A stretch of DNA of 59,012 bases, taken from assembly GCF_004010195.1 (NCBI RefSeq), contig NC_057757.1, forward strand, positions 636,964 through 695,975, written 5' to 3'. Below, in pieces: positions 4,481-48,800 of the stretch. The notes below the pieces were generated by a model. The model ran no database searches and was not told where the DNA came from. It saw nothing but the letters and a program-made list of their open reading frames with translations. The DNA is from Chiloscyllium plagiosum (taxonomy: Eukaryota). How positions within the stretch are numbered: the first letter of the stretch is position 1; each line of letters opens with the position of its first letter. The translations under genes and the position numbers were made by a program.

Positions 4481-5360
4481 CATTGAATCCCCACAGTATA
4501 GAAGCAGGCCATTCAGCCCATACCAACCCTCCAAAGAGCATCCCATCTTATCCCATCCCATGGCTTAACCTACACATCCCTGGACACTATGGGGCAATTT
4601 AGTATAGCCAATCCACCCTACCTGCACACCTTTGGACTGTGGGAGGAAACCAGAGCACCCAGAGAAACCCCACACAGACACGGGGAGGATGTGCAAACCC
4701 CACCCAGACACGGGGAGGATGTGCAAACCCCACACAGACACGGGGAGGATGTGCAAACCCCACACAGTCACGGGGAGGATATGCAAACCCCACCCAGTCA
4801 CGGGGATGATGTGCAAATCCCACCCAGACACGGGGAGGATATGCAAACCCCACCCAGTCACGGGGATGAGGTGCAAACCCCACCCAGACACGGGGATGAT
4901 GTGCAAACCCCACCCAGACACAGGGAGGATGTGCAAACCCCACACAGACACGGGGATGAGGTGCAAACCCCACCCAGTCACGGGGATGAGGTGCAAACCC
5001 CACCCAGACACGGGGATGATGTGCAAACCCCACACAGACACGGGGAGGATGTGCAAACCCCACACAGACACGGGGAGGATGTACAAACCCCACCCAGTCA
5101 CGGGGAGGATGTGCAAACCCCACACAGACACGGGGAGGATGTGCAAACCCCACACAGTCACGGGGAGGATGTGCAAACCCCACACAGTCACGGGGAGGAT
5201 GTGCAAACCCCACCCTGACACGGGGAGGATGTGCAAACCCCACACAGACACGGGGAGGATGTGCAAACCCCACACAGACACGGGGAGGATTTGCAAACCC
5301 CACACAGTCACCTGAATCAGATCTGGTGTTGCGAGGCAGCTGCGTTAACCACTGAGACGC
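4481..5360 (-). mobile_element. V-SINE/HE1-type SINE with internal tandem expansion
   Basis: Flanks match the SINE core GGTTTCCTCCCACAGTCCAAAG also seen at about 25150, 26250 and 36640. Confidence 0.85.
4665..5311. repeat. 30-bp minisatellite, about 21.5 copies (AAACCCCACACAGACACGGGGAGGATGTGC)
   Basis: The periodicity is directly visible and produces the repetitive ORFs on both strands. Confidence 0.97.
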
Positions 5361-5654
5361 CCTTGATGAGATAAGGAGGATTTACTGCTCTCAGTGCCAC
5401 ACCTTTGGAATTCACTCCCTGAGGCTCTGTCAGTCATTAATAATGTTCAGGACTGAGAATGATAGGCTCCTACAAATTAAAAACACCAAGGGATGTGGAA
5501 ATAGTGCAGGGAAATGGTGTTGATGTAGCTAGACCGTGACCTTATTGAATGGTGGAGCAGGCTCAAAGGAGCTGAATGGCCTTCTGCTGGCCCCATTGTG
5601 TTCTTATGCAACAGAAAATGGCCATTCAGCCCTTCAAACCTATTCTGCTTTTCA

Positions 5655-7364: not shown

Positions 7365-7951
7365 GTGAGTTCACAAACTAACCAGTTCTTAGGGAAACAA
7401 CACAGACCACGTTGTATTTGCAAATCAAGCCAGGATTTCTACTGCATCAGTGTGAACCGACCGGACTTTTCAACAAGGGCAGCTTTTTGTGAGTGGGAGG
7501 AAGTGGGTTCGGATTTTCAAATTACTGAGCATTCTGACTGACTTAAAACTCGTTAAGAAGTGACTTTTTTTTTTAAATAGATCTTTCTCGAGGCCCTTTT
7601 TTAGTCAGAAATCGCCCTCGCACAAATGTTACTGGGCCGGAGGAGACCACTCGGCCCGTCGTGTCTGCACGTCAAAGGGCGTCAGTCAGTCGCCAGTTTC
7701 CCTCCATCCCCATTTCCTTGCACGCTGTTACCATTCAAATCACTGTCCTCATTAAAACCTAAATTAAAAACCCAAAGAGCTGCGGGTGCCGGGAATCAGA
7801 AACTGCTGGAAAAGCTCAGCAAGTCTGGCAGCATCTGTAGCAGAGAAAGCAGGTCCAGTTACCCTTCCTCAGAATATTGTTTTAATTTCGTGCACGGTTT
7901 CTCTCTCCATAGACACCGCCAGAATCTATTTAGCTTTGGTTAATTATCCTT

Positions 7952-8260
7952 CCTCAGGCGTGCTGTCATAGAGAGGTATAAGACACAGTATTCATAAACA
8001 AAACGTTAATAACTTTAAAATAAGCTGCCCTTGTTGAATCCTGTAATCAGTTAGGAGGTGGACTGCTGGTTAGACTGGAAAGGAATCTGATTTTACATTT
8101 TAATCAGCACTCTTATCTCCTAACTGATTACAGGATTCAACAAGGGCAGCTAGTTTTAAAGTTGTGCCTGATACCCCTCTATCACAACAGGTCTGAGCTC
8201 CGAAAGCCAGTCCTTCCCAAATAAACCTGTTGGACTGGAACCTGGCATCGTTTGATTTTT
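7952..8260. repeat. Long inverted repeat (hairpin) related to the Penelope-derived short elements
   Basis: 8011-8058 is the near-exact reverse complement of 8117-8164, with outer arms at about 7952-7986 and 8164-8197. The tail CCAAATAAACCTGTTGGACT is shared with the 21.6-kb element. Confidence 0.75.
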
Positions 8261-8469
8261 GCCTTTCCCTCTGAGCTACTTTCCCTTGTTCTGTGCTTTC
8301 ACTCTCTGTTTTGCTGCTCTCTGTTCTGTCACTCGCTCTGTTCCACTCTCTCTCTCTCTCTGTCTACTTCATCTCTGTTTCTCTCTCCCATCACTCTCTA
8401 CTATCCTCATTAGAAACCAGGAGTTGACCCTTTAAGCCATCTCCACATTCAGTAAGGCCATGGATGATC

Positions 8470-9930: not shown

Positions 9931-10880
9931 TCTCGTACTGACTTCCTACAATTTCTCCCTCTCACTTGACTCCTAACATTTCAGAAAGGGCTGTTTGCAC
10001 CGCTTTTTGTGAAGACAGGACCTGTCTCTCTTNNNNNNNNNNNNNNNNNNNNNNNNNNNNNNNNNNNNNNNNNNNNNNNNNNNNNNNNNNNNNNNNNNNN
10101 NNNNNNNNNNNNNNNNNNNNNNNNNNNNNNNNNNNNNNNNNNNNNNNNNNNNNNNNNNNNNNNNNNNNNNNNNNNNNNNNNNNNNNNNNNNNNNNNNNNN
10201 NNNNNNNNNNNNNNNNNNNNNNNNNNNNNNNNNNNNNNNNNNNNNNNNNNNNNNNNNNNNNNNNNNNNNNNNNNNNNNNNNNNNNNNNNNNNNNNNNNNN
10301 NNNNNNNNNNNNNNNNNNNNNNNNNNNNNNNNNNNNNNNNNNNNNNNNNNNNNNNNNNNNNNNNNNNNNNNNNNNNNNNNNNNNNNNNNNNNNNNNNNNN
10401 NNNNNNNNNNNNNNNNNNNNNNNNNNNNNNNNNNNNNNNNNNNNNNNNNNNNNNNNNNNNNNNNNNNNNNNNNNNNNNNNNNNNNNNNNNNNNNNNNNNN
10501 NNNNNNNNNNNNNNNNNNNNNNNNNNNNNNNNCTCACACACACACACACACACACACAGCTAGAGCAGATATCCCAACACACAGGCAGGAACATCATCGA
10601 CGGTGGAAAGTGAGTCTCTGTCAGTGGGAGCATGACTATTCCTGATTGTTGGGAAAGCCCTTGGGATTCACTAACGTCCTTCAGGGAGGGAGACCTGCTA
10701 TTCTTACCCCGGTCTGGCCTCACACGTGACTCCAGGCCCAGAGCCCAATGTGGCTGCGTTTAACTTGCCCCCCATAACAGCCTGGCAGCACTCTTGGTTC
10801 AGGGACAATTAGGGAGGGGAGAAAATGCTGACCTAACAACAGGCCTCACACCCTGTGGAAGGAGAGAGGAAGAGATAGTG

Positions 10881-13800
10881 GGAGGAGATCCTGAGCATGG
10901 GAGAGTGATCCCAGAGTGATCCCAGAGTGTGGGAGAGTGATCCCAGAGTGATCCCAGAGTGTGGGAGAGTGATCCCAGAGTGACCCCAGAGTGATCCCTG
11001 AGCATGGGAGAGTGATCCCAGAGTGACCCCAGAGTGATCCAGAGTGTGGGAAAGTGATCCCAGAGTGTGGGAGAGTGATCCCAGAGTGACCCCAGAGTGA
11101 TCCCTGAGCATGGGAGAGTGATCCCAGAGTGACCTCAGAGTGATCCCTGAGTGTGGGAGAGTGATCCAAGAGTGATCCCAGAGTGTGGGAGAGTGAACCC
11201 AGAGTGATCCCAGAGTGTGGGAGAGTGAACCAAGAGTGATCCCAGAGTGTGGGAGAGTAATCCCAGAGTGTGGGAGAGTGATCCCAGAGTGTGGGAGAGT
11301 GATCCCAGAGTGAACCCAGAGTGTGGGAGAGTGAACCCAGAGTGATCCCAGAGTGATCGCAGAGTGTGGGAGAGTGATCCCAGAGTGTGGGAGAGTGATC
11401 CCAGAGTGATCCCAGAGTGTGGGAAAGTGATCCCAGAGTGATCCCAGAGTGTGGGAGAGTGATCCCAGAGTGAACCCAGAGTGATCCCAGAGTGTGGGAG
11501 AGTGATCCCAGAGTGTGGGAGAGTGATCCCAGAGTGTGGGAGAGTGATCCCAGAGTGATCCCTGAGTGTGGGAGAGTGATCCCAGAGTGAACCCAGAGTG
11601 TGGGAGAGTGATGACAGAGTGAACCCAGAGTGATCCCAGAGTGTGGGAGAGTGATCCCAGAGTGATCCCAGAGTGATCCCTGAGTGTGGGAGAGTGATCC
11701 CAGAGTGTGGGAGAGTGAACCCAGAGTGATCCCAGAGTGTGGGAGAGTGAACCCAGAGTGATTACAGAGTGAACCCAGAGTGTGGGAGAGTGAACCCAGA
11801 GTGATCCCAGAGTGTGGGAGAGTGATCCCAGAGTGTGGGTGAGTGATCCCAGAGTGTGGGAGAGTGATCACAGAGTGAACCCAGAGTGATCCCAGAGTGA
11901 TCCCATAGTGTGGGAGAGTGATCCCAGAGTGAACCCAGAGTGTGGGAGAGTGATCCCAGAGTGATCCCAGAGTGTGGGAGAGTGATCCCAGAGTGATCCC
12001 ATAGTGTGGGAGAGTGATCCCAGAGTGAACCCAGAGTGACCCCAGAGTGATCCCTGAGTGTGGGAGAGTGATCCCAGAGTGTGGGAGAGTGATCCCAGAG
12101 TGAACCCAGAGTGTGGGAGAGTGATCCCAGAGTGATCTCAGAGTGTGGGAGAGTGATCTCAGAGTGAACCCAGAGTGATCCCAGAGTGAACCCAGAGTGT
12201 GGGAGAGTGATCCCAGAGTGTGGGAGAGTTATCCCAGAGTGATCCCAGAGTGAACCCAGAGTGAGGGAGAGTGATCCCAGAGTGAACCCAGAGTGATCCC
12301 AGTGTGTAGCAGAGTGATCCCAGAGTGCTCCCAGAGTGAACCCAGAGTGATCCCAGAGTGTGGGAGAGTGATCCCAGAGTGAACCCAGAGTGATCCCAGA
12401 GTGAACCCAGAGTGTGGGAGAGTGATCCTAGAGTGTGGGAGAGTTATCCCAGAGTGATCCCAGAGTGAACCCAGAGTGATCCCAGAATGTGGGAGAGTGA
12501 TCCCAGAGTGAACCCAGAGTGATCCCAGAATATAGGAGAGTGATCCCAGAGTGAACCCAGAGTGATCCCAGAGTGTGGGAGAGTGAACCCAGAGTGAACC
12601 CAGAGTGTGGGAGAGTGATCCCAGAGTGAACCGAGAGTGATCCCAGAGTGTGGGAGAGTGACCCCGAGTGCTCCCAGAGTGTGGGAGAGTGAACCCAGAG
12701 TGATCCCAGAGTGAACCCAGAGTGATCCCAGAGTGATCCCAGAGTGTGGGAGAGTGATCCCAGAGTGTGGGAGAGTGCTCCCAGAGTGAATCCAGAGTGA
12801 ACCCAGAGTGTGGGAGAGTGATCCCAGAATGTGGGAGTGTTATCCCAGAGTGATCCCAGAGTGAACCCAGAGTGAGGGAGAGTGATCCCAGAGTGATCCC
12901 AGTGTGTGGGAGAGTGATCCCAGAGTGCTCCCAGAGTGTGGGAGAGTGATCCCAGAGTGAACCCAGAGTGATCCCAGAGTGATCCCAGAGTGTGGGAGAG
13001 TGATCACAGAGTGAACCCTGAGTGTGGGAGAGTGATCCCAGAGTGAACCCAGAGTGATCCCAGAGTGTGGGAGAGTGATCCCAGAGTGTGGGAGAGTGAT
13101 CCCAGAGTGAACCCAGAGTGAACCCAGAGTGTGGGAGAGTGATCCCAGAGTGATCCCAGAGTGTGGGAGAGTGATCCCAGAGTGAACCCAGAGTGAACCC
13201 AGAGTGTGGGAGAGTGATCCCAGAGTGATCCCAGAGTGTGGGAGAGTGATTCCAGAGTGATCCCAGAGTGTGGGAGAGTGATCCCAGAGTGTGGGCAAGT
13301 GATCCCAGAGTGTGGGAGAGTGATCCCAGAGTGAACCCAGAGTGATCCCAGAGTGTGGGCGAGTGATCCCAGAGTGAACCCAGAGTGATCCCAGAGTGTG
13401 GGAGAGTGATTCCAGAGTGATCCCAGAGTGTGGGAGAGTGATTCCAGAGTGATCCCAGAGTGAACACAGAGTGTGGGAGAGTGATCCCAGGGTGAACCCA
13501 GAGTGTGGGAGAGTGATCCCAGAGTGAACCCAGAGTGATCCCAGAGTGATCCCATAGTGTGGGAGAGTGATCCCAGAGTGTGGGCAAGTGATCCCAGAGT
13601 GATCCCAGAGTGAACCCAGAGTGATCCCAGAGTGTGGGAGAGTGATTCCAGAGTGATCCCAGAGTGTGGTACAGTGATCCCAGAGTGTTGGGCGAGTGAT
13701 CCCAGAGTGATCCCAGAGTGAACCCAGAGTGAACCAAGAGTGTGGGAGAGTGATTCCAGAGTGATCCCAGAGTGTGGTACAGTGATCCCAGAGTGTGGGA

Positions 13801-14939
13801 GAGTGATCCCAGAGTGATCCCAGAGTGAACCAAGAGTGTGGGAGAGTGATCCCAGAGTGAACCCAGAGTGTGGGAGAGTGATTCCAGAGTGATCCCAGAG
13901 TGTGGCAGAGTGATCCCAGAGTGATCCCAGAGTGTGGGAGAGTGAACCCAGAGTGATCCCAGAGTGTGGGAGAGTGATCCCAGAGTGATCCCAGAGTGAA
14001 CCCAGAGTGTGGGAGAGTGATTCCAGAGTGATCCCAGAGTGTGGGAGAGTGATCCCAGCGTGTGGGAGAGTGATCCCAGAGAATGGGATAGTGATTCCAG
14101 AGTGATCCCAGAATGATCCCAGAGTGTGGGAGAGTGATCCCAGAGTGAACCCAGAGTGTGGGAGAGTGATTCCAGAGTAATCCCAGAGTGTGGCAGATTG
14201 ATCCCAGAGTGCACCCAGAGTGATCCCAGAGTGTGGGAGAGTGATCCCAGAGTGCTCCCAGAGTGTGGGAGAGTGATTCCAGAGTGATCCCAGAGTGAAC
14301 ACAGAGTGTGGGAGAGTGATCCCAGGGTGAACCCAGAGTGCACCCAGAGTGTGGGAGAGTGATCCCAGAGTGAACCCAGAGTGATCCCATAGTGTGGGAG
14401 AGTGATCCCAGAGTGCACCCAGAGTGTGGGAGAGTGATCCCAGAGTGAACCCAGAGTGATCCCATAGTGTGGGAGAGTGATCCCAGAGTGAACCCAGAGT
14501 GTGGGAGAGTGATCCCAGAGTGAGCCCAGAGTGTGGGAGAGTGATCCCAGAGTGTGGGAGAGTGAACCCAGAGTGAACCCATAGTGTGGGAGAGTGATCC
14601 CAGAGTGATCCCAGAGTGTGGGAGAGTGAACCCAGAGTGATCCCAGAGTGAACCCAGAGTGATCCCAGAGTGTGGGAGAGTGAACCCAGAGTAAACCCAG
14701 AGTGTGGGAGATTGAACCCAGAGTGATCCCAGAGTGTGGGAGAGTGAACCCAGAGTGATCCCAGAGTGTGGGAGAGTGATCCCAGAGTGAACCCAGAGTG
14801 TGGGAGAGTGAACCCAGAGTGAACCCATAGTGTGGGAGAGTGATCCCAGAGTGAACCCAGAGTGTGGGAGAGTGAACCCAGAGTGAACCCATAGTGTGGG
14901 AGAGTGATCCCAGAGTGAACCCAGAGTGTGGGAGAGTGA
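10881..14939. repeat. About 4-kb satellite of interspersed 11-bp (GATCCCAGAGT/GAACCCAGAGT) and 10-bp (GTGGGAGAGT) units; runs into a gap
   Basis: Directly visible in the sequence. Confidence 0.97.
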
Positions 14940-21289: not shown

Positions 21290-22220
21290 AATATCCTGGG
21301 TGCCCTTGTACATGAATCTCAAAAAGGTGGTTTGTAGGTGCAGCAGATAATTAAAGCAGCAAATGGAATACGGTCCTTCATTGCAGGAGGGATGGAGTTT
21401 AAAAACAAAGGTTATGCTGCAGCTGTACAGGATGTTAGTGAGGGCACACCTGGAATACTGTGTGCAGTTCTACAAAGCTAAAGATTACCCAACACCAGGT
21501 TGTAGTCCAACAGGTTTATTTGGAAGTACTGTACTAGCTTTCAGACTGCTGCTCCTTCATCAGGCGGTTGTGGAGAAGGATGAAGGACCTGATGAAGGAG
21601 CAGCGCTCCGAAAGTTAGTGCTTCCAAATAAACCTGTTGGACTGTAACCTGGTGTTGGGTGATTTTTAAGCTTTGTACATCCCAGTCCAACACCGGCGTC
21701 TCCACATCATGTGCACGGTTCTGGTCTTGAGAAAGGGATGTCCTGGCACCGGAGGGAGGGCAAAGGAGGTTCACTGAGTTGATGCTGGAATTGAGGGTTG
21801 GCTTATGAGGAGAGATTGAGTAGCCTGGGACTGTACACACTGGAATTTAGAAGAATGAGGAATCTTACAGAAAGAAAATTAAGGGATTAGACAAGGTAGA
21901 AGCAAGAAAGTTGTTTCCATTGGTGGGTGAAACTAGAACTAGGGGGCGTGACCTCAAAATAAGGAGGGCAACAGATTTTGGACTGAGCTGAGGAGGAACT
22001 TCTTCACCCAGAGGGTTGGGAATCTGTGGAATTTCCTATCCAGCAGAACAGTTGAAGCTACTCTGTTGAATGTTTTGAAGACAAGGATAGGTTTTTGAAC
22101 AGTAAAGGTGTTAAAGGTTACGGTGAGCGGGTGGGTAAGTGGAGCCGAGTCCATGAAAAGCTGAGTGGCAGAGGAGGGGGGGGCTCGAGGGGCCAGATGG
22201 CCTATGCCTATTATGTTCTT
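21290..22220 (+). mobile_element. CR1 3' fragment containing a nested hairpin element (about 21472-21709)
   Basis: LYRMLVRAHLEYCVQF is interrupted by an inverted-repeat insert. Confidence 0.85.
21589..21620 (+). ncRNA. Minimal hammerhead-ribozyme-like motif in hairpin element
   Basis: CTGATGA-A-GGAGC-agc-GCTCC-GAAA-GT-TA-GTG. Confidence 0.55.
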
Positions 22221-30009: not shown

Positions 30010-30759
30010 CTGCAGGGAAAGGGAGGTTCACAACCAGGTTTGCCAGTGGCATCAACAAGAATTCATTCAACATTTAGGCAGAATGTTTAAACCCCTTATC
30101 CCACAATTGCTACCCCATGAAGGCCAGGCTCACTGACTGGACCACATCATTGAGGGCCCTCTGCCGTGTGCAAAACCCTTCATTGTCTGAGTGTAACCAA
30201 TTCTGCCTCAAAACGTGGTGGTCATTGAGCTCATGTGTAGAATGCATTTTGCAACATCCCAAAGAGTTTTACCAACAATTAATATTTTAGAACAACTGTA
30301 ATGCAGGAAATAAGACAGCTGGTTAGTGCACAAACTCCCCCGAGCAGCCAACAGAATCTAGTTTAGTTGCTATGGGATAATTTAGCTCACTACGTTTAGC
30401 TGAACCTCAGGCACTTTGAGAATGTACAGCAGAATCTTTTATATCCACTCGAGGGGACCAGAGAGTTATTTAATACCACATCTCTCTCAGTATTGCAGCA
30501 GGAGTGTTAAACCTGGAGTTAGTGTTCAACTCTGCAGTGGGACTCAAACTCAACCTGTGGTACAGGAGAGTGCCTCTCACCAAGCCAATGGACACAGATC
30601 AAAAGTGGGACCCTAACATTCTGCAACCTCCAATTCCCCCCACTCAATGTGACTTGCATTGACATCTGCCCTCCCAAGTGGCCCCACTGTTCCTGAAGCA
30701 TCTTGAAAGGAGTCTGATGATTTAGTACAAATTGTGGACAGAAATTCTTCTGTAATCCT

Positions 30760-31500
30760 TTGTCCAGTTCTGGTTGCCCTGTCATGAGAAGGATATTATT
30801 AAACTGGTTCAGAAGAGACTTATAAGGATGTTGCTGGGAGTTATGGGAAGGGGTGGATAGGCTGGGATTTCTTTCCCCTGGGAGGTTGAAAGGTGACCTT
30901 ATAGAAATTTATAAGATCACGAGCAGTAGAACGGCAAATGTCTTTTCCCTAGGATGGGGGATTTCAAGATTGGGGACATATTTTTAAGGTAGAGGAGAAA
31001 GAATAAAAAATGGGCAATTTTCTGGTTATTTTGTAGTTTGGGTGGAATGAACTGCCAGAGGAAGTGGTGGGTATGGGTACAGGTACAAAACTTAAACAGC
31101 ATTTAGATAAGTACATGACTAGGACAGGTTTGAAGGGGTGATTTGGAGATGCCGGTGTTGGACTGGGGTGTACAAAGTTAAAAATCCCACAACACCAGGT
31201 TATAGTCCAACAGGTTTAATTGGAAGCACTAGCTATCGGAGCGACGCTCCTTCATCAGGTGGTTGTGGAGAACAATTGGAAGGCAGAGGTTTGCAATAAA
31301 TTCAGTGTCTTGCAATGGTGTCCTCCACAACCACCTGATGAAGGAGCAGCACTCCGAAAGCTAGTGCTTCCAATTAACTTGGACTATAACTTGTGTTGTG
31401 TGATTTTTAGGTTTGAAGGGAATTGGGTCAAGCGCAGGAAGGTTGAACTAGCTTAGTTTGAGATTATGGTCAACACAGACTAAAGGGTTTTGTTTCTGTG
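30760..31500 (+). mobile_element. CR1 3' fragment with a nested hairpin element (31138-31408, 12-bp TSD)
   Basis: AGGTTTGAAGGG at 31126-31137 and 31409-31420. The insert has inverted arms. Confidence 0.85.
31332..31366 (+). ncRNA. Minimal type I hammerhead ribozyme motif
   Basis: CAC-CTGATGA-A-GGAG-cagca-CTCC-GAAA-GC-TA-GTG: stem I CAC/GTG, stem II GGAG/CTCC, palindromic AGCT in place of stem III. Confidence 0.65.
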
Positions 31501-34125
31501 GTCTAAATTCTTTCTGATTCGGAGCTGAATTTAAGTCAATTCCCAGGGATCATGCAAATTCTTCAAAAGCATTCACCCCAAAACAAAGTGAGCAGGGAGA
31601 GTGAACAGCTTTTTAATTGAAACCATTTGGTTTTTCACCCACGAGAGTACCACTGAATCTAATATCAAAAAGTGTACAGCAATTGTGACAACACTTAAAT
31701 CACAGACCACCGAGGAATCACATGGCAAAGCTACCTGATGCAAGTTCTTCGAATTTTGTCGATGGCACTAGCTACACAGTATAACGATTGCTGTTAGTGA
31801 GAACATGCTGCAGATAGAGGGGAAACAGTGTAATCTGGGTGTTGGGAGGCTGCTGTTTAACGGCATAGCCTGCTGGGGGCAGAGCTGCCTTTCTGACAGC
31901 CAAGAGCACTCCAAGGTGTTTGCAGAATTCAGGGTAGTGCACGTGCTGATACAAAACAAGACAGGACAGCTGCAGCAATAGAAAGAGTTGCCTAGTAAAG
32001 ATCCACAAAGGGGGTTTACAACACAATGTGGACAGCCCAGAACCACTCAAAAACCTTAGTAGGGGAGCTTCTCCCCCTGCTATTCCCAGTGATTTGCTGC
32101 TATTCTTCCAAAGAGATTCAGTGTCAGGATTATTTAATACAACTGGCAGTAACTCGTTCTCTCCTAAAGACAAGCTGCATGCTTATTTTTGGAGTTAGGG
32201 GGTTGGGGGAAGGGGTGGTTTAGATAAATAAAGACTCACTCAGCAGTTAACACTGGCACCAAAAATCCCCACATCTGAGGAAGACAGACAGTGGAAGGAG
32301 GGAGAATGTTTGGAATTTCTGACTGAAGTTTACATGGATTGAAAACTTTGGATGCGGTTTGAGTTCCACATGCCCGATAACACCATCTGAGATGTGTAGG
32401 CTTACACCTGCTGGGCATGGGCCTGCATGAACTGCAATCCTGCGGGAAATCCCCAAAGGCATGCTTACCAGAGGTTTATCAAGAACCATCAGATCTCTCT
32501 TCATGATCACCCTACCCGCTGTCAGCCATTATCCTCAGACTAATGATAAATTGCTCAGTTTAGATGTGCAACATACCAAAGACTCAAAACAGTAAAAAAA
32601 AAAGGAAAACTTGCAAGTGAGGGGGAAATCACTTGGCACCACTGAGGCAGCTGGTGGAACCCTCCAGCCACTTTCAGATGCTGACGGATCCATGGGTTTT
32701 CACCAGAGAACCTCCAATGGTGCTCTCCAAAGTCAGACCTCTCAGTATTGTTTTGAAAGGGTTGGCGGGGGGAATTTGCCTGGCCTTTTCGGTGATGTTT
32801 GAGAGATCCTACCATGCACAACTTGGCTGTCACATTTACCATATTACAACAGTGATTACACTTTCAAAAAGCATTTCATTGGCTGTGAAGGACTATGGGA
32901 CATCCCAGGATGATGAAAGGTGGTACAGAAATGCAGTTCATTTGTTTTTGCATTTGGTGCTGAATTTCAATTCAGGTAACTAAGGTCCAACCTGTTACCA
33001 TGTTTCGGATTGCACTACATTCAAACATTACTGATGAAACAATCCCGGATGTTATACAGGCAAGCAGCTCACTCAAAACATAGTAATGGGGAAGGGTGAT
33101 GCAACTTGAACCATCAACAGCTTCTGAGCTGCAGAAGCAGCTGAAGGCCAAAGAACTAAATATTCCAGCATTACAGGCAGCAACAGGAGGTGACATACCT
33201 GCAGCTCAGTGTTGCTGAGCTCGGGAGTTTGCTGTTTAGCAGGGGGTGTAGGGGGCAGGAATGCAACATCCTAACATTGCAACATAACACAGCTCCCCCT
33301 CTCACAGAGGCCAACACCAAATCAGAGACCGCAGATCCATTGGGAACACTGGCAGAGGTCACTACAGTGTTGTATTTAGACACACAAGTGATGAGCATAG
33401 AGAAATCCATTCCTGGGGCCACGCAAATAGCAGATATTTAGTTATCAAATATCACAAAAACAGAGGCGGGGGATTGGTGCAAGGATGAGGAGTTGTAAAT
33501 TAGTCCACGACTCCTACGCACACATTTGCAACATCCAGTACACACTCAGGTTTGTGTACCGCTCAAATTCACCGCAGACCTGCTCCGGGCCATCTGTGCG
33601 GTTTAGTATTAGACACATGTTGTTCAACCATACCCACTCGTACATAACCTCTTGAGACAATGGATATACATAGTAAATACACAGTTTTACCAGCCCTTAG
33701 TTCCACCCAGCCCCTCTCCTCTTTGCTGAATCCCCAGTGCATTCTCCCCTTTCAACTATCGATCAAGGTTGTTTTGAAACTGCAGGCAGTATTTCAGATC
33801 ACAACCCCGTATAAGAGAACTCTGACCTATATTCTTTTTGCCAATCTGTATTCATGGTTAATCAGCTCTCCTGTAGTGGAAATAGTTCCTTTAAGCTCAA
33901 TTGATTCTGAAATTTCTATATTAGGATGTACTGTTGTGATATGTTGTAACTGATGGATAGAATACATGTGCACCTTGAGAGGTTGTGTATTTTACAAAGA
34001 AAGGATACTTGGAATGTCTCGGTCTCCGGATAGAAACCCTGGACCATACCAGTCTTGCTCAGCCCCATTTCTCTGATTCTGTCCAACAGTGAAAGTAGTA
34101 ACATGTCAAATTGTTTAACAATTAC

Positions 34126-37675: not shown

Positions 37676-37828
37676 CAAAAACAAGGACTGCAGATGCTAG
37701 AAACCAGATTCTGGATTAGAGTGGTGCTGGAAAAGCACAGCAGTTCAGGCAGCAGAGGAGCACAAAACGCCGATTTTCCTGCTCCTCGGATGCTGCCTGA
37801 ACTGTGCTTTTCCAGCACCATTCTAATC
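37676..37828. mobile_element. Hairpin insertion (same family as 1126-1315) with 17-bp TSD
   Basis: CATTAACCTGGCCAAGG at 37659-37675 and 37829-37845, with inverted arms. Confidence 0.88.
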
Positions 37829-39064
37829 CATTAACCTGGCCAAGGAAAAACTGACTACACTATTAGAAGACCCAAAGTCACATACACCAATCACCAACTT
37901 CATCAGCAAGGACAGTATCGTTGAGTTAATGTACCTTTGCCTTCCCACCCACTTCACCTTCAACAACAAAACCTACAGACAAACCAACGGACCACCCGGG
38001 ATCTCCGATATCAGGGTTCTGAGCAGAGGCAGTAACACAGACTCAAATAAACAGCTCTGCCAACCATCCAACTTAAACATTGGGTCCCCTACGTGGATAA
38101 CATCTTTGTCATCATTAAACGGAACAAATTAGAGGAAACCTTCAAGGCCATCAATAATACCCTTACTGGCATAACATTCACAAAAGAGGAGGAAACCAAC
38201 AAGCTGCCATTCCTAGATGTCACAGTAGAGCAAACAGCCAATGGGGAACTTCAAGCCAGTGTCGACAGGAAAAAAACTCATACGGACCAAATACTGAACT
38301 ACAGAAGCAATCATCCCAACACCCACAAACGAAGCTGCATCAGAACATTATTTCAACGAGCCAGCACACACTGCAGCACAGAGGAACTATGCAGAGCAGA
38401 GGAAAGTCACCTATACAGTGTATTCAAAAAGAACAGGTATCCAATGAACAGTCCACCAGTTTCTGAGCAACAAACCCAAACAAGCAGACAAAGCACGTCC
38501 AGAAACCCTAGCCACTCTCCCCTACATCAAAGACATCTCGGAAATGACTGCCAGACTACTCAGACCCCTTGGCATTATGGTAGCGCACAAAGCCACCAAC
38601 ACACTAAAACAGCAGCTAATGAACTTCAAAGACCCTCAACAGCCAACAAGCAAAACTAATGTCATTTAAAAATACCTTGCAAGAACTGTAACAAACACGA
38701 CATTGGACAAACAGGCAGCAAACTAGCCAACAAGATACATGAACACCAAGTAGCCACAAAAAGCTACTCACTAGTATCCTCACATACAGATGAGAAAGGA
38801 CACCACTTTGACTGAGACAACACATCCATCCTAGGACGAGCCAAACAGGCGCACACAAGAATTCCTAGAATCATGGCAGTCCAACCGTAACTCTATCAAC
38901 AAATACACTGACTTGGATGCCATTTACCACCCCCTGAGAAAAAGAACTGGAAATGACATCAGCATATGAAATGATGTTACCACAGGAAATTACATCACCA
39001 ACTCAAGGAAACCCAAATACAACATAGAACACGGGCTACACCACTGGTGCTTCATCTGGAGGCC

Positions 39065-39102
39065 CACTGAAGATGTTACCTAGTATGGTGACGAAATGTC
39101 TG
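39065..39102 (+). ncRNA. Minimal hammerhead ribozyme motif at the 3' end of the Penelope-like element
   Basis: CA-CTGAAGA-T-GTTACC-tagtat-GGTGAC-GAAA-T-GTC-TG, with a canonical GUC triplet. Confidence 0.7.
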
Positions 39103-41117
39103 AAAACGCACCTACCAGCTCAGTGAGCAAGCCTACATCCAGAACCTCAACCCGAGCTACAAATCTTCTCAGAAGTCGCTAACCTTCCATTAACTCGAAG
39201 AATTGGAGATTGAAGCACTTACTGCCAGATTGGATTTGTTTCACCTCTGGTGAATAGAATACCTTGACAACTTTGCATATTACTGACTGCTGTCCAGTGT
39301 TGTAGCTGTACCGCAACAGCTTAACTTGAGAGCTTGCTTTGGAGCATGGGTTTCAGCACCACAACCAGGGTCCACTGGCCTTGCTATATCCAGTCTGTTT
39401 AGCTATTTGGTCTCTCTCACATGACTGAAGACTGACAGCTGCAGAGGTGGGGTCTCTAAAGAATCACAGGTGGATCTCCCACTCTCACGAGCTCATAACG
39501 GTCCCTTCAGCCTGGTGTGCTCACTGCTCAGGAGGATGGAGATGCTGGAGCTTAGCCATGCACAACTGTCAAGCTGTGGATCCAATTCATCCTTTGAGTG
39601 TCCACTTGGCTGTATCTACTGCATGTTGCTTCTGCTGTTCAGCGTATATATCACTCTACACCAGTTTGACAGCTCACTTCATGGCACTTTGCCTAGTACT
39701 ATCTAGACATGCTTTCCCAAGTCCTCATGGGACCAGGACTGGTCAAGACACTTAATGGAGTGAGGCGATCAGCCCATGAGATTCCATCTTTGAGAGATGT
39801 TAAGCCTGTCATCTCAGGAGCCATCCTAATTCTGCCTTGAAAAGGGACAGGCTCAGTCTTCACAGCCTTTTGCGGTAAAGAGCTCTAAGACAAGGCTTAT
39901 CCTCATCGGCCTTAAATGGGCAATCCCTTGCTTTTAAAAAGACCTTAGTTCAAGATGCTCCCACAAGGAGCAAGCATCCTCACCACACCTACCAACGTCC
40001 CTCAGCATATCTTGCCTTAATCAAGTCACTTCTTAACTGAAACTATCACAGATACAAGACCAGCCTGACTGCTACCTGACCAATCTGTGGGAATAAGACT
40101 CGCCCAGTTTTTAAAACAAGTCTCAGCAAGTTACAGGACAGAGTCCGAGAGACTGGGGCTGCGTTCAGAGACAGTGTTAGATTTTATTGTACCTCGTTGG
40201 AACAGGTTCACACAGCTGAGTGGCTTCCTTGGCCATTTTGAAGTCGTCAGCCATATTGTCACATGGTATGGGACCATACGAGGTGGGCAGACCTGTTAAG
40301 GACAGAGGATGCCCTTCCCCAAAGAACTTGGCTGAACCAAATGGTAGTTTTTTTTAAAAAATGACTCTGCGGTAGTTGTTTCGGACTATTACCAAGACTA
40401 GATGACTTTTTTATTCAAGATGTATTTAAATTAATGGAAAGCATTATGGAGGAAGGTAATTAAGACTTGCTTTGGTGCCACCAGAACAATTTAAAACCAG
40501 TCACTGCTGTTTGAGATGACAGCCCAGATGAACATTATGCATGATGCCAATGGATGACTAACCAGCCTGATACCCAATGTCATTAATACAACACTGCAGG
40601 CCTCATTCACAGGACAGTTAAATTCAGAGTGTCAAGCAAGGTATTAGGGAGGGGAGAGAGCGAGTGAGGATGGGAAGGAAGGAGGGAGTTCAAAACGAAG
40701 CTTTGATCAGGGTGTAAAAAGCCCATTTCTAGTGGCAGGAGTGTGCAAGGAACCAGATGACACAGTGAAGGCAATTTGTGCAGGATTCCTAGACAATAAG
40801 AAACTATTTATTAGAAAAAAAACAGCAATTTATAGCACAGAACACACCATCTAAAAGGATTATGGAATCCACGTGGAATAAAATTTATCCAGATTTTGGC
40901 TGGAAGTTGCAGGAAAACACATTTATGGAGAAAGACCAGGAAACGCTGTTAACTAGGTAGCTCTAAAGAACCATAAGAGAAACAGAAATAGGCCATTCAG
41001 CCCATTAAGTCTGCTCTGCTATTCACAAATCACAGCTGATCTCAATTCGCAACTCCATTTTGTCTTTTCCACAGAACCCTTGATTCCCTTAAAGATCAAG
41101 AAAATCTGACGAATATA

Positions 41118-41318
41118 TGATTTGGAGGAGCCGGTGTTGGACTGGGGTGTACAAAGTTAAAAATCACAACACCAGGTTACAGTCCAACAGGTTTAATTGG
41201 AAGCACGAGCTTTTGGGGCATCTCCACAACCACTTTATGAAGGCGCGGCACTCTGAAAGCTAGTGCTTCCAATTAAACCGGTTGGACTATAATCTGGTGT
41301 TGTGTGATTTTTAACTTT
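41118..41318. mobile_element. Third, more degenerate copy of the 21.5/31.2-kb hairpin family
   Basis: Same GCCGGTGTTGGACTGGGGTGTACAAAGTTAAAAATC head and inverted arms. Confidence 0.85.
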
Positions 41319-42102
41319 GACTCAAATATACTTAGTGATCCAGCCTCACCAGCCCTCTGTGGTAAAGGTTTCCACAGATAAATTCCCTTCACCAGTCTTA
41401 TTTGTGTGATCCATTATTCCAATGATGCCTCTGCTTCCAGTCTCCCAAGAGGAAAAATAACCTGCCTACATCTACCTGGTCCACTCCCCCAAGGACCCTT
41501 TTACACTTCAAAAGGTCACCTCTCATTCTTTGTTCCATCAAGTACAGGTCCAGTTTACTCTATCTTTCCTCAGATAGTCCTTCTATACACAGTATCAGCC
41601 CAGTCAAGCTTTTGTGGACTGGCTCCAATGCTGCCTTATTATTCCCTAGACAAGGGGCCCAAAACCGTTCCAACTGCTGTCTGACCAGCACCTTGTGAAA
41701 TCTTTGAAAACCCTCCCTGCTTTTATACCTCAATCCTTTTGAAATGAAAGCCACCATTCAATTTGCCTTCCTTATTATCGAAGGAGTTTGGATGCTCATC
41801 TTTTGAGCGTCGCAGATAAGAACTTTGAGATTCCTCTTACGTAACTTTCTGCAGTCTTTCGAGACATTTAAATGAAGGAGAAGATCTGGTGGACCAAATG
41901 GCCATTCTGTGTCACATTTACTGACTATTACAAACCACACACCTAATCACACTGAAGGCATCAGTAAGATATATAGTATTTTAGAGATGGTCCATATTTC
42001 AATAAAAACATCACAAGCAATGCTCTATTTTCCTCCAATTATTCAAATGAATAAAAGCAATAAGAGTCAGGTTGTAATGGATGCAGCCTTCCTGCCTCTC
42101 AC

Positions 42103-45829: not shown

Positions 45830-48800
45830 TACAAGGATGGATGTATGGCTGAGGAGCTGGCTCAGGGGGCATGGACTCTCATTCTTGGATCATCGGGATC
45901 TCTTTGGGGTTGAAGTGACCTGTACAAGGTTGTACCTGAATTGGAAGGGGACTAACATCGTGATGGGGAAATGTAACTCATTGGGGATGGAAGACCCAAA
46001 CAGACTAAGAGAAACAAAGCCCAAGGTTGGTACACTATTTGATTTCCTCCTTTTCTCAAATCAAGGCAGAGAATGGGGTAAGACTGAATTAAACTGCATT
46101 TATTTCAATACCAGAGGGCCTGATAAGGCAGATGAACTCCGGGAACACGGGACTGGGATATCATAGCTAATCCAGAAACGTGACTCCGGGAAGGGCAGGA
46201 CTGGCACCTTAATGTTCAGGGTATAGCTACTATAGGAAGGATAGAAAGAGAGGGCAAGGAAGGAGGGGGAAGTGATGTTTTTGATTCAGGATAACATTAC
46301 TGTACTTGGGGAGATTAACTTCACTGGATATTTCCCAGGAATGTGTTGGCTGGAAGGAGAAATGAGAAAGCCATGATGCCCTTGTTGGGATTTACTATAG
46401 GCCCCTCAACAGTCAGTGGGAAATTGAGAAACAAGTTTGTCAGGACTTGCAAGAATAGTAGGGTGGGAATGGTAGGTGATTTTAACTTCTCAAACAGACT
46501 GGGACTGTCTGTTATGGGCTTGGATAGGGAAGAATTTGTTAAGTGCGTATAAGAACATTTTCCAATTCAGTATGCGGACGTACCTCCTAGAGGAGCAGAA
46601 AAACTTGACCTACTCTTGGGAAATAAGGCAGGGCAAGTGACAGATGTCAGTGGGGAAGTACTTTGGGGCCAGTGATCATAATTCTATCAGTTTTAAAGTA
46701 GTTATGGAAATGATAGACTTGATCAAAAAGTTTAAAGTTTAGCTCAACAAGGCCAATTTTGACAGTATTAGGCAAGAACTTTCAAAAGTTGATTGGGAGA
46801 GGCTATTCACTGATAAGGGGACTGTTGGAAAGTGAGAGGCCTTCAAAATAGGATTTCAGAGACAGTATGTTCTTGTTAATGAGAAGGGCAAGGCTGGACG
46901 ACTAGAGAAATTGAGGCTCTGGTAAAGAAAAAGGAGGAATGTTAGGCATAGAAAGCTGGGATCCAGTGAATCCTGAGGGGAGCATAAAGGCAGTAGGAGT
47001 GTTCTTAAGAGGGAATTCAGGGGGACCAAAAAAGGAGACAACCTTGCATTCTCCTTAACCGTATTTGTCAAAGCTAAGAGATTCTACAAAATAGACTAAG
47101 GACAAAAGAGTAATTAGGGAAAGAAGAGAGTCAAAGACCAACACAGTACAGGAACGGGCCTTTTAGACCTCCAAGCCTGCGCCAATACATTTTGCCCTTC
47201 CATACGAAAACTATTTTAAAAACTGTCTTCACTTACAGGATCCGGTTCCCTCTATTCCCTTCCTATTCATGTCCTTGTCCAGGTGCTTCTTAAATGCTGC
47301 TATTCTGTCTGCTTCCAGCACCTCTGGCAGTGCATACCAGACACTCCCCATCCTGTGTGGGGAAAACCTGCCTCGCACTAAACATACCCCCACCCCTTGA
47401 ACCTGTGCCCCCTAGTAACTGACCCCTCCACCCTGGGAAAAAGCCTCGTACTTCCCACTCTATCCATACAATTCACAATCTTTTAAACTTCTAATCAGGT
47501 CACCCTCGACCTCCTGCATTTCAGTGAAAACAAACCCATTCTATCCAACCTTTCTTCATCGCTAAAATCCCTGATACCAGGCAACATCCTGGTAAACATT
47601 TTCTGGACCCTCTCCAAAATATCTTTCCCCTTCTGGTAGCGTGGTGCCCAGAACTGTTTGCAATATTCCACTTGTGGCCTAGATAAAGTTCTGTAAAGCT
47701 GCAGCATCACTGGTCGATCCCTATACTCAACGCCCTTTCCAATGAAGGGGAGCATGCCACAGATCTTGTACAACCTAATCTACCTGCACTGCTACCTTCA
47801 GTGATCTGTGGACCTGCACACCCAGATCCCCCTGCATAGCAATACTCCTAAAGGTTCTGCTATTCACTGTATACATTTCCACTTGTATTTGACCTTCCAA
47901 AATACATCAGCTCACATTTGTCTAGATTAAATTCCATCTGCCATTTTTCTGCCTACGCCTCCAACTGATCTATATCCTGCTATATCCTCCAACAGTCCTC
48001 CTCACTATCCAGAGCTCCAATTTTCGTATATTCTCCCCTCCCCCCAATCATTTATGATGACCACAAATAGAGGTGCCAGCATAGATCCCTGTGGAACACC
48101 GGGAGTCACAACCCTCCATCCTGAAAAGCATCTTTCCACCGTTACACATGTCTCTACAAGTAAGCCAGTTCTATATTGACCTTGCCAGCTCAGCCTGATA
48201 CCATGTAACTCCACCTTTCGTACCAGTCTGCCATCAGGGACCTTGTCTAAGGGTTTACTGAAGTCCACGTAGACAATATCATTCGATTTTCCCTCAATCA
48301 TCGTCACCACAAAACAAGTCCCTTAAAGATCAGCAAGGCCAACAGAGAGAGGAACCACATGAGAAGGATGGGATACTAAATGAGTATTTCATGTCAGTAT
48401 GGTGAAGGAGGATATGGAAACGAGCGAACTTGGGGAAATAGCAATTCCTTAAAAAGTGCCTCTATTACAGAAGAGGTGGACATCTTGAAATACATAAAGG
48501 TGGATAAATCCTAGGAACTTGATCAGGTGCTTCCCAGAGCTTTGTGGGAAATTAGGGAAGAGATTGCCAGGCTCCTTGCTGAGATATTTGTAGCAATGAT
48601 AGCCACAGGCAAGGTGCCAGAAAACTGGAAGTTTGAGTGTGTGATGTCATTGTTTAAGAAGGGTGATAATAAAATAGTTCCCTGACTTTAGATAGGCAAA
48701 CCTGATAAATGTCTAGATTAGAGTGGTGCTGGAAAAGCACAGCAGGTCAGGCAGCATCGGAGGAGCCTGACATAAGTGATGGGTAAGTCAGAGTTTAACT

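Follow-up and report, generated by a model that had tools for sequence, protein, structure and literature searches.

The question raised by this locus is how two inverted hammerhead motifs came to lie in one intron of Chiloscyllium plagiosum, and whether they are paired there for a function. Within the window, that is, the whole stretch of 59,012 nucleotides analysed here, the interval 31138-31408 is most plausibly a head-to-head pair of pLTR ends, both 5'-truncated, that come from a very abundant Penelope-like element (PLE); one end has a 35-40-nt 'tail' and the other lacks it. The focal insertion is otherwise ordinary, and its fold-back architecture is already published; the less familiar detail is a poly(A) signal right after the family hammerhead, which some transcripts use.

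We begin with the insertion itself, which the first-pass annotation had described as a 271-bp insert with inverted arms and a 12-bp target-site duplication (TSD). This description holds: 31138-31408 is a genuine 271-bp insert whose TSD is exact. The duplicated 12-mer, AGGTTTGAAGGG, is the sole 12-mer repeat at a spacing of 271 ± 3 among 51,012 positions (tandem arrays excluded). Both flanks align continuously, with a 12-nt overlap, to one other LINE copy (19384-18974); since the flanks thus form one continuous LINE 3' fragment, what lies between them is an insertion. We take the target LINE to be of CR1/L2-like type.

31126-31137, + strand: left copy of the TSD (exact repeat)
31409-31420, + strand: right copy of the TSD (exact repeat)
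30806-31476, + strand: LINE 3' fragment, the insertion target (flank alignments)

The arms are inverted repeats of each other, and each has a hammerhead core where one had been claimed. They are composed as follows.

31138-31278, - strand: long arm, a 5'-truncated pLTR end through the tail, sense to the host gene (alignment, family reads)
31138-31175, - strand: AC-rich 'tail', on the long arm only, between the family 3' ends 31139 and 31172-31177 (loose ends, alignment)
31200-31203, - strand: position at which family RNA reads acquire poly(A), defined at family level (poly(T) loose ends, run X21)
31215-31220, - strand: poly(A) signal AUUAAA, dimorphic AAUAAA/AUUAAA in the family (depth of the 31219 variant)
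31227-31261, - strand: minimal type I hammerhead reading GAUA through a private A14U change, the predicted cut lying between 31230 and 31229
31279-31289, no strand: 11-nt junction between the two 5' ends (arm comparison, family reads)
31290-31408, + strand: short arm, antisense to the host gene, a pLTR end that lacks the tail and includes about 45 nt of upstream family sequence (alignment, family reads)
31332-31366, + strand: minimal type I hammerhead with intact core and 4-bp stem II (descriptor match)
31373-31378, + strand: poly(A) signal disrupted by a 4-nt deletion (alignment)

The junction is this short because family reads extend upstream into sequence matching 31290-31322; by the family loose ends, most of this 'spacer' is family sequence in + orientation. 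The + core reads CUGAUGA at 31335-31341 and GAAA at 31356-31359, followed by AGCU and A17, with stem I formed by CAC/GUG at 31332-31366. The arm had been called intact, which is right for its core and wrong for the rest, where the fifth stem II pair is missing and 4 nt are deleted from the poly(A) signal. The - core (31261-31227) does read GAUA in place of GAAA, as had been noticed, in the assembly, from which this reading is taken, no contig piece spanning the locus. More than 99% of the family depth has GAAA (the canonical base holds 99.5% and 99.2% of the depth in two DNA runs), hence the focal GAUA is private decay. A scan with hammerhead models, which the annotation had proposed, came out divided. 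In the whole window a minimal-hammerhead descriptor finds a single match, the + arm, with a match in 1 of 300 Markov simulations; the features present are an extra base after A9, G10.1-C11.1, a palindromic 15.2-16.2 and the absence of stem III. The Rfam covariance models, on the other hand, give no hammerhead match in the window at E<=5 or in the + arm at E<=10, their output being weak hairpin matches to microRNA models only.

The two cores had also been supposed to form a functional pair, and this idea was not supported. The insert folds at a predicted -158.5 kcal/mol (z -16, with 0 of 200 shuffles equally good), and in this fold the probability of stems I and II is 0.00 for both strands; when the - arm is taken alone, stem II has 0.93. 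For a dimer of the + arm, the double-hammerhead fold is predicted at -12.5 kcal/mol and the lowest-energy dimer at -22.9. Cleavage by hammerhead dimers has reportedly been described by Lunse et al.; for the two cores here an active dimer is impossible because they lie on opposite strands. Any focal transcript has one sense core plus its complement, and the host-strand core is the GAUA mutant. The ribozymes at the focal locus thus appear as passengers, whose core the predicted hairpin would bury.

BLAST recovers the relatives of the insert that had been reported earlier, namely two sister copies and a weaker relative near 8 kb with its match at 8197-8266; both sisters have degenerate TSDs, which fall below the criterion of the TSD scan. 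The host gene was read from exons, splice sites and a Pfam scan of 227 of the 248 open frames of at least 65 aa (the 21 excluded lie in tandem or low-complexity arrays), and FXR2 is the best PDB match of one of its exons.

24208-53538, - strand: FXR2-like gene (exon and splice-site reading), with exons at 53538-53445, 44536-44443, 43529-43413, about 42270-42103, 37197-37119, 34212-34126, from 30009, and 24356-24208
30010-34125, - strand: intron of this FMR1/FXR-family (FXR2-like) gene, containing the focal insert (Pfam, exons, splice sites)
21472-21709, no strand: sister fold-back with the tail on the + arm, 2.5 kb beyond the gene's stop codon (BLAST, alignment)
41118-41319, no strand: sister fold-back with the tail on the - arm and both cores damaged, intronic (BLAST, alignment)
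7952-8266, no strand: diverged relative, palindromic in its interior (8011-8163) and retaining part of a ribozyme end at 8197-8266 (BLAST, repeats)

In all three window copies a 5'-truncated copy is inverted head to head against the other, one arm stopping at the long family end and the other at the short one, which agrees with the earlier attribution to Penelope-type minimal hammerheads inserted as inverted terminal fragments and with the published PLE anatomy. The tail is on exactly one arm in three of three family copies, and likewise in both fold-backs of a second family. All six arms measure 100-141 nt, and the three copies differ in junction, arm length and tail side. It had further been proposed that such hairpins are seeded in pre-mRNA. 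This may apply to two of the three copies, which are intronic and predicted to fold stably on the gene's strand; the 21.5-kb copy, 2.5 kb downstream of the stop codon, is therefore not intronic.

Some features of these copies are recorded here for their own sake. The - arm at 21472-21577 retains, on the gene's strand, an AAUAAA (21520) that lies 2.5 kb downstream of the stop codon; judged from the sequence, the gene could use it as a distal poly(A) site, although earlier signals exist. Among 21587-21709, 31138-31408 and 41118-41319, a small sample, the two cores that are unbroken lie antisense to the gene, and the gene-strand arms, three of three in the same small sample, have ribozyme parts damaged or missing. 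The window contains further elements. A decayed, 5'-truncated PLE of autonomous type lies at 37850-39165 (+), intronic in the FXR2-like gene; it is Poseidon-like, with remnants of the RT C-half and of GIY-YIG, stops, frameshifts, no Zn linker, and a hammerhead core of its own at 39067-39096. The second family of PLE-like ends has fold-backs at 1126-1316 and 37676-37829, with TSDs of 15 bp and about 17 bp and the same one-sided tail; one further arm of it stands alone at 48712-48767. Next to the 8-kb relative, 7765-7960 contains ends of a third family, whose minus-strand cores (7872, 7957) read CUGAGGA. In addition, there are a 30-bp minisatellite at 4545-5444 and a 32/11/21-bp satellite array at 10838-14939 that reaches an assembly gap.

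To view the family as a whole, sequencing reads and contigs were matched to one arm plus spacer at 85% likeness. On the whole, 75,102 of 23.6 million contigs match in one DNA run (X1) and 60,520 of 20.1 million in another (X8); contig counts and summed depths are not copy numbers, and the family is very abundant, as had been expected. Among the 40 of 86 variant positions listed, there is none in CUGAUGA or in the stem II positions 31247-31250, the variants that are frequent and not at CpG sites fall in loop II (40-49%) or outside the stems, and changes of stems and G12 (2-22%) are at CpG sites; in the UH cut triplet, H17 varies to U at 2.9% of DNA depth. This pattern agrees with selection acting on the source elements, decay setting in once a copy is inserted. 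The covariation of stem II that had been looked for was not found: in the core of stems I and II, none of eight pairs is changed on both sides among only six sequences. In these six sequences 85% of the stem cells are paired, against 23-54% when slid, and one outer stem I pair is A-U in the family and U-A in a related locus from a metagenome (L002).

The contigs also define where the family ends. Two 3' ends are preferred, separated by about 35 nt, at 31139 (2,163 and 2,399 contigs with loose ends in the two DNA runs) and at 31172-31177 (339+340 and 344+420), and the consensus of the flank is AT-rich. Among the 15 of 87 joints listed, opposite-strand joints are heterogeneous, both head to head and tail to tail, and one joint goes back, so tandem copies may occur elsewhere; some tail-to-tail joints at 31139 put the long end directly on a short end, with no target DNA between. 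Different junctions, different tail sides and heterogeneous joints mean that each hairpin is a separate insertion event, and the earlier notion of a non-autonomous fold-back family is not sustained. We did not adopt CUCCACAACC as a fixed 5' boundary, as family reads continue into common upstream sequence.

The hammerhead of the family is followed by a feature of another kind. AAUAAA and AUUAAA are both standard poly(A) signals, and one of these hexamers begins 10 nt past the predicted cut site, followed by a GU-rich tract; the family is split about evenly between the two, the 31219 variant taking 49.5% and 59.6% of DNA depth. In RNA run X21, poly(T) loose ends are found in 771 reads at 31200 and 592 at 31203. 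Thus 1,363 of 3,103 matched RNA reads, from one library of one sample, have poly(T) starting 27-30 nt past the cut site, a share that is not an efficiency, this library being 3'-biased. The sister run X22 gave no matching reads. The poly(T) strand is the one expected for ribozyme-sense RNA, the templated sequence 3' of the poly(A) site is not A-rich, and the poly(A) places are absent from the six loose-end positions listed for each DNA run, 619 others lying outside that list. First-mate depth rises from 384 to 2,066 at the poly(A) place and is 1,807-2,011 across the cut site. The RNA reads show no pile-up of beginnings or ends, in a library that loses 27-30-nt 3' products; a 3' cleavage product of this size would be lost from any library of the X21 type, in which cleaved molecules are invisible. 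In the folded insert, the first three bases of the hexamer have an unpaired probability of 0.00-0.01 and the last three of 0.23-0.57.

Allele skews suggest that a few loci dominate the poly(A) reads. One such skew concerns a 2-nt insertion after stem I (31226), seen in 570 of 2,401 RNA reads vs about 0.1% of DNA depth, which suggests that few copies dominate the polyadenylated reads. Places of A>G change number 14 in RNA vs 2 and 3 in the DNA runs, and those at 31191 and 31202 show the strand bias expected of A-to-I editing. However, the non-editing changes at 31173, 31165 and 31156 are equally strand-biased, so a few expressed copies would be enough to explain the excess in RNA.

No ORF of the focal family is attached to the copies in the window, and the parent element was approached through relatives. 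A metagenome scan gives two loci, both with a 35-nt match to the motif at 91% identity. One (L001) has an RT fragment (RVT_1, E 1.5e-5). The other (L002) has a 177-codon GIY-YIG-like frame with a CxxxxCxxC linker; Pfam gives no match to the frame itself, and its two longer homologues (P0001/P0002) both have RT, one of them with a weak GIY-YIG match. The Zn-finger-like linker is seen in L002 and these two homologues only. As a whole, 48-1470 of L002 is a PLE relative, with the endonuclease frame, an inverted internal piece, the ribozyme, an AAUAAA 18 nt past its cut, and a homologous tail region. Downstream of the motif, similarity to this relative is equalled in 0 of 2,000 shuffles when the 21.6-kb arm is used and in 58 of 2,000 with the focal arm; upstream of it, similarity is insignificant (870 of 2,000). 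The linker is a mark of the Neptune and Nematis clades in the available part of PMC8557442. The parent is thus probably an endonuclease-positive (EN+) PLE of Neptune/Nematis type, as the sequence of the relative indicates; L001 and L002 lie in rearranged contigs from another organism, which makes the clade assignment probable and not proven. Motif scans of viral contigs and prokaryote genomes and a protein scan of viral contigs gave no match.

How the insert arose can now be discussed. With a probability of roughly 0.8, it was dead on arrival, inserted by the RT/GIY-YIG protein of an EN+ PLE. The protein would cut both DNA strands 12 nt apart, and each 3'-OH would prime reverse transcription of uncleaved RNA, starting from one or the other of two neighbouring internal sites; both cDNAs would stop after 120-140 nt and then be joined. 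In the source element, the motif would probably be a dimer-dependent or protein-assisted hammerhead followed by the poly(A) signal. What is observed is the staggered target duplication and the two ribozyme-bearing ends, each at a different preferred 3' end. Counting against this explanation, the arm lengths of 100-141 nt are shorter and more uniform than random truncation suggests. For the same reason, it is a live alternative that the arms are run-off copies of a short RNA starting just upstream of the ribozyme, the short module being a SINE-like or strong-stop product made in bulk, which would be compatible with the insertion by the EN+ PLE protein. Besides the arm lengths, two of the six arms start 14 nt upstream of the core, and summed DNA depth falls from 854,000 to 114,000 across 31260-31277. 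However, this drop is partly an edge effect of the reference stretch, the reads pass into common upstream family sequence at 31270-31274, no pile-up of read starts or ends is listed for the family reads, and the other four arms start at about -45, -20, -2 and within stem II. On balance, we regard such a short RNA as a real possibility that falls short of being probable.

The joining of the two ends could have another origin, in which a single cDNA (or an antisense template) would have folded onto itself before being copied; this self-priming is a published model for head-to-head PLE junctions in what is available of PMC3846280. At 31219, the dimorphic position of the poly(A) signal, the two arms match in three of three insertions, as one template predicts. 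At the dimorphic loop II site 31244, by contrast, only one of two insertions is concordant and the focal arms are discordant, the junction is 11 unassigned bases and not a palindrome, and the short arm stops at the family's second preferred end. The arm-to-arm markers do not decide the matter, and self-priming is a rival that we regard as less likely than not. The presence within 59 kb of three hairpins of similar size and with TSD-like flanks, in a highly abundant family, could also suggest a non-autonomous fold-back element mobilised as a unit with functionally paired ribozymes; the differences among the three copies in junctions, arm lengths and tail side, the varied opposite-strand joints in contigs, and cores on opposite strands that are fully sequestered in the predicted fold leave this reading largely refuted and very unlikely. 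Finally, the host might have co-opted the hairpin to regulate the FXR2-like pre-mRNA by editing, splicing or termination, given that it is intronic, 1.1 kb upstream of the acceptor, and predicted to fold at -142.8 kcal/mol on the gene's strand. Since both arms show ordinary decay within a LINE remnant, and RNA depth over the locus-specific junction is 0-1.8 (weak evidence from a 3'-biased library), co-option is highly improbable.

Beyond the insertion by an EN+ PLE protein, the pLTR end could tentatively be viewed as a selected three-part switch, composed of the hammerhead, the poly(A) signal and site, and the two RT start sites; we put this forward as a speculation that is rather unlikely to hold in full. 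Under such a switch, uncut solo transcripts would be polyadenylated 27-30 nt past the cut and so lose the RT start sites, cleavage triggered by a dimer or by protein would strip the poly(A) tail, and reverse transcription would be possible only for read-through RNA or for the 5' copy of a repeat. Such a restriction of templates would explain the flood of 100-140-nt inserts. If so, the family spreads very many portable poly(A) sites across the genome, and introns would tolerate head-to-head pairs because signal and ribozyme are both concealed in the hairpin. Should the poly(A) signal beside the cut site prove to be a conserved and working part, the ribozyme's job would be to decide between tailed mRNA and untailed template, and the family would be a large source of host 3' ends and also of cryptic intronic termination in the genome. 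The family is abundant enough for statistical tests of models of tail formation and of inverted junctions.

The system can be compared with known ones, as far as the available parts of the cited sources go. Insertion units of EN+ PLEs consist of a pLTR, an adjacent inverted 5'-truncated copy, a 30-40-bp tail at one end and an 8-10-bp TSD (PMC3846280, PMC8557442), and the same anatomy is given in PMC8969392. The focal copy shares the head-to-head inverted ends, the one-arm tail, the TSD and a ribozyme in the terminal repeat, and differs in having no ORF-bearing body, arms below 150 nt and a TSD of 12 bp. PMC8557442 leaves the function of the PLE hammerhead unsettled. Minimal motifs that are mostly solo and come from truncated PLEs, as well as opposite-strand pairs 100-700 bp apart, are described in PMC4209133; as in these metazoan minimal hammerheads, the family has CUGANGA, the extra base before stem II, G10.1-C11.1, GAAA, the palindromic 15.2-16.2, no stem III and a short stem I. 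Unlike them, its stem II has 5 bp and a 3-nt loop, vs 7-8 bp in Schistosoma, and the adjoining poly(A) signal is unmentioned in the part of PMC4209133 at hand. Our search, which left subscription journals, Repbase and Dfam outside, found neither a published poly(A) signal adjoining PLE hammerheads nor a published account of the focal family in sharks. The Poseidon element PAc of the green anole cleaves both strands and uses uncleaved RNA as template, its tail is defined by two adjacent internal RT start sites, and its ribozyme cuts only with protein (PMC11167929). The two RT start points in an AC-rich region 3' of the ribozyme and the AT-rich targets are alike here; in contrast, the PAc ORF begins at stem II, where no such open frame was found in our case, and the closest linked protein has a linker of Neptune/Nematis type. 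Non-LTR retrozymes, reported in one chondrichthyan genome (PMC7229834, bioRxiv 10.64898/2026.07.22.740005), are likewise short, non-coding and derived from PLE pLTRs with a type I hammerhead; they are direct tandem repeats that allow dimers or circles, whereas the window copies are all inverted. The order of parts is shared with the Clec2 3'-UTR hammerhead (PMC6765202), in which the cut site is also upstream of the poly(A) signal, so that cleavage would remove the tail, with the difference that the Clec2 motif is a domesticated, split ribozyme of mammalian mRNA and the present one is a transposon module.
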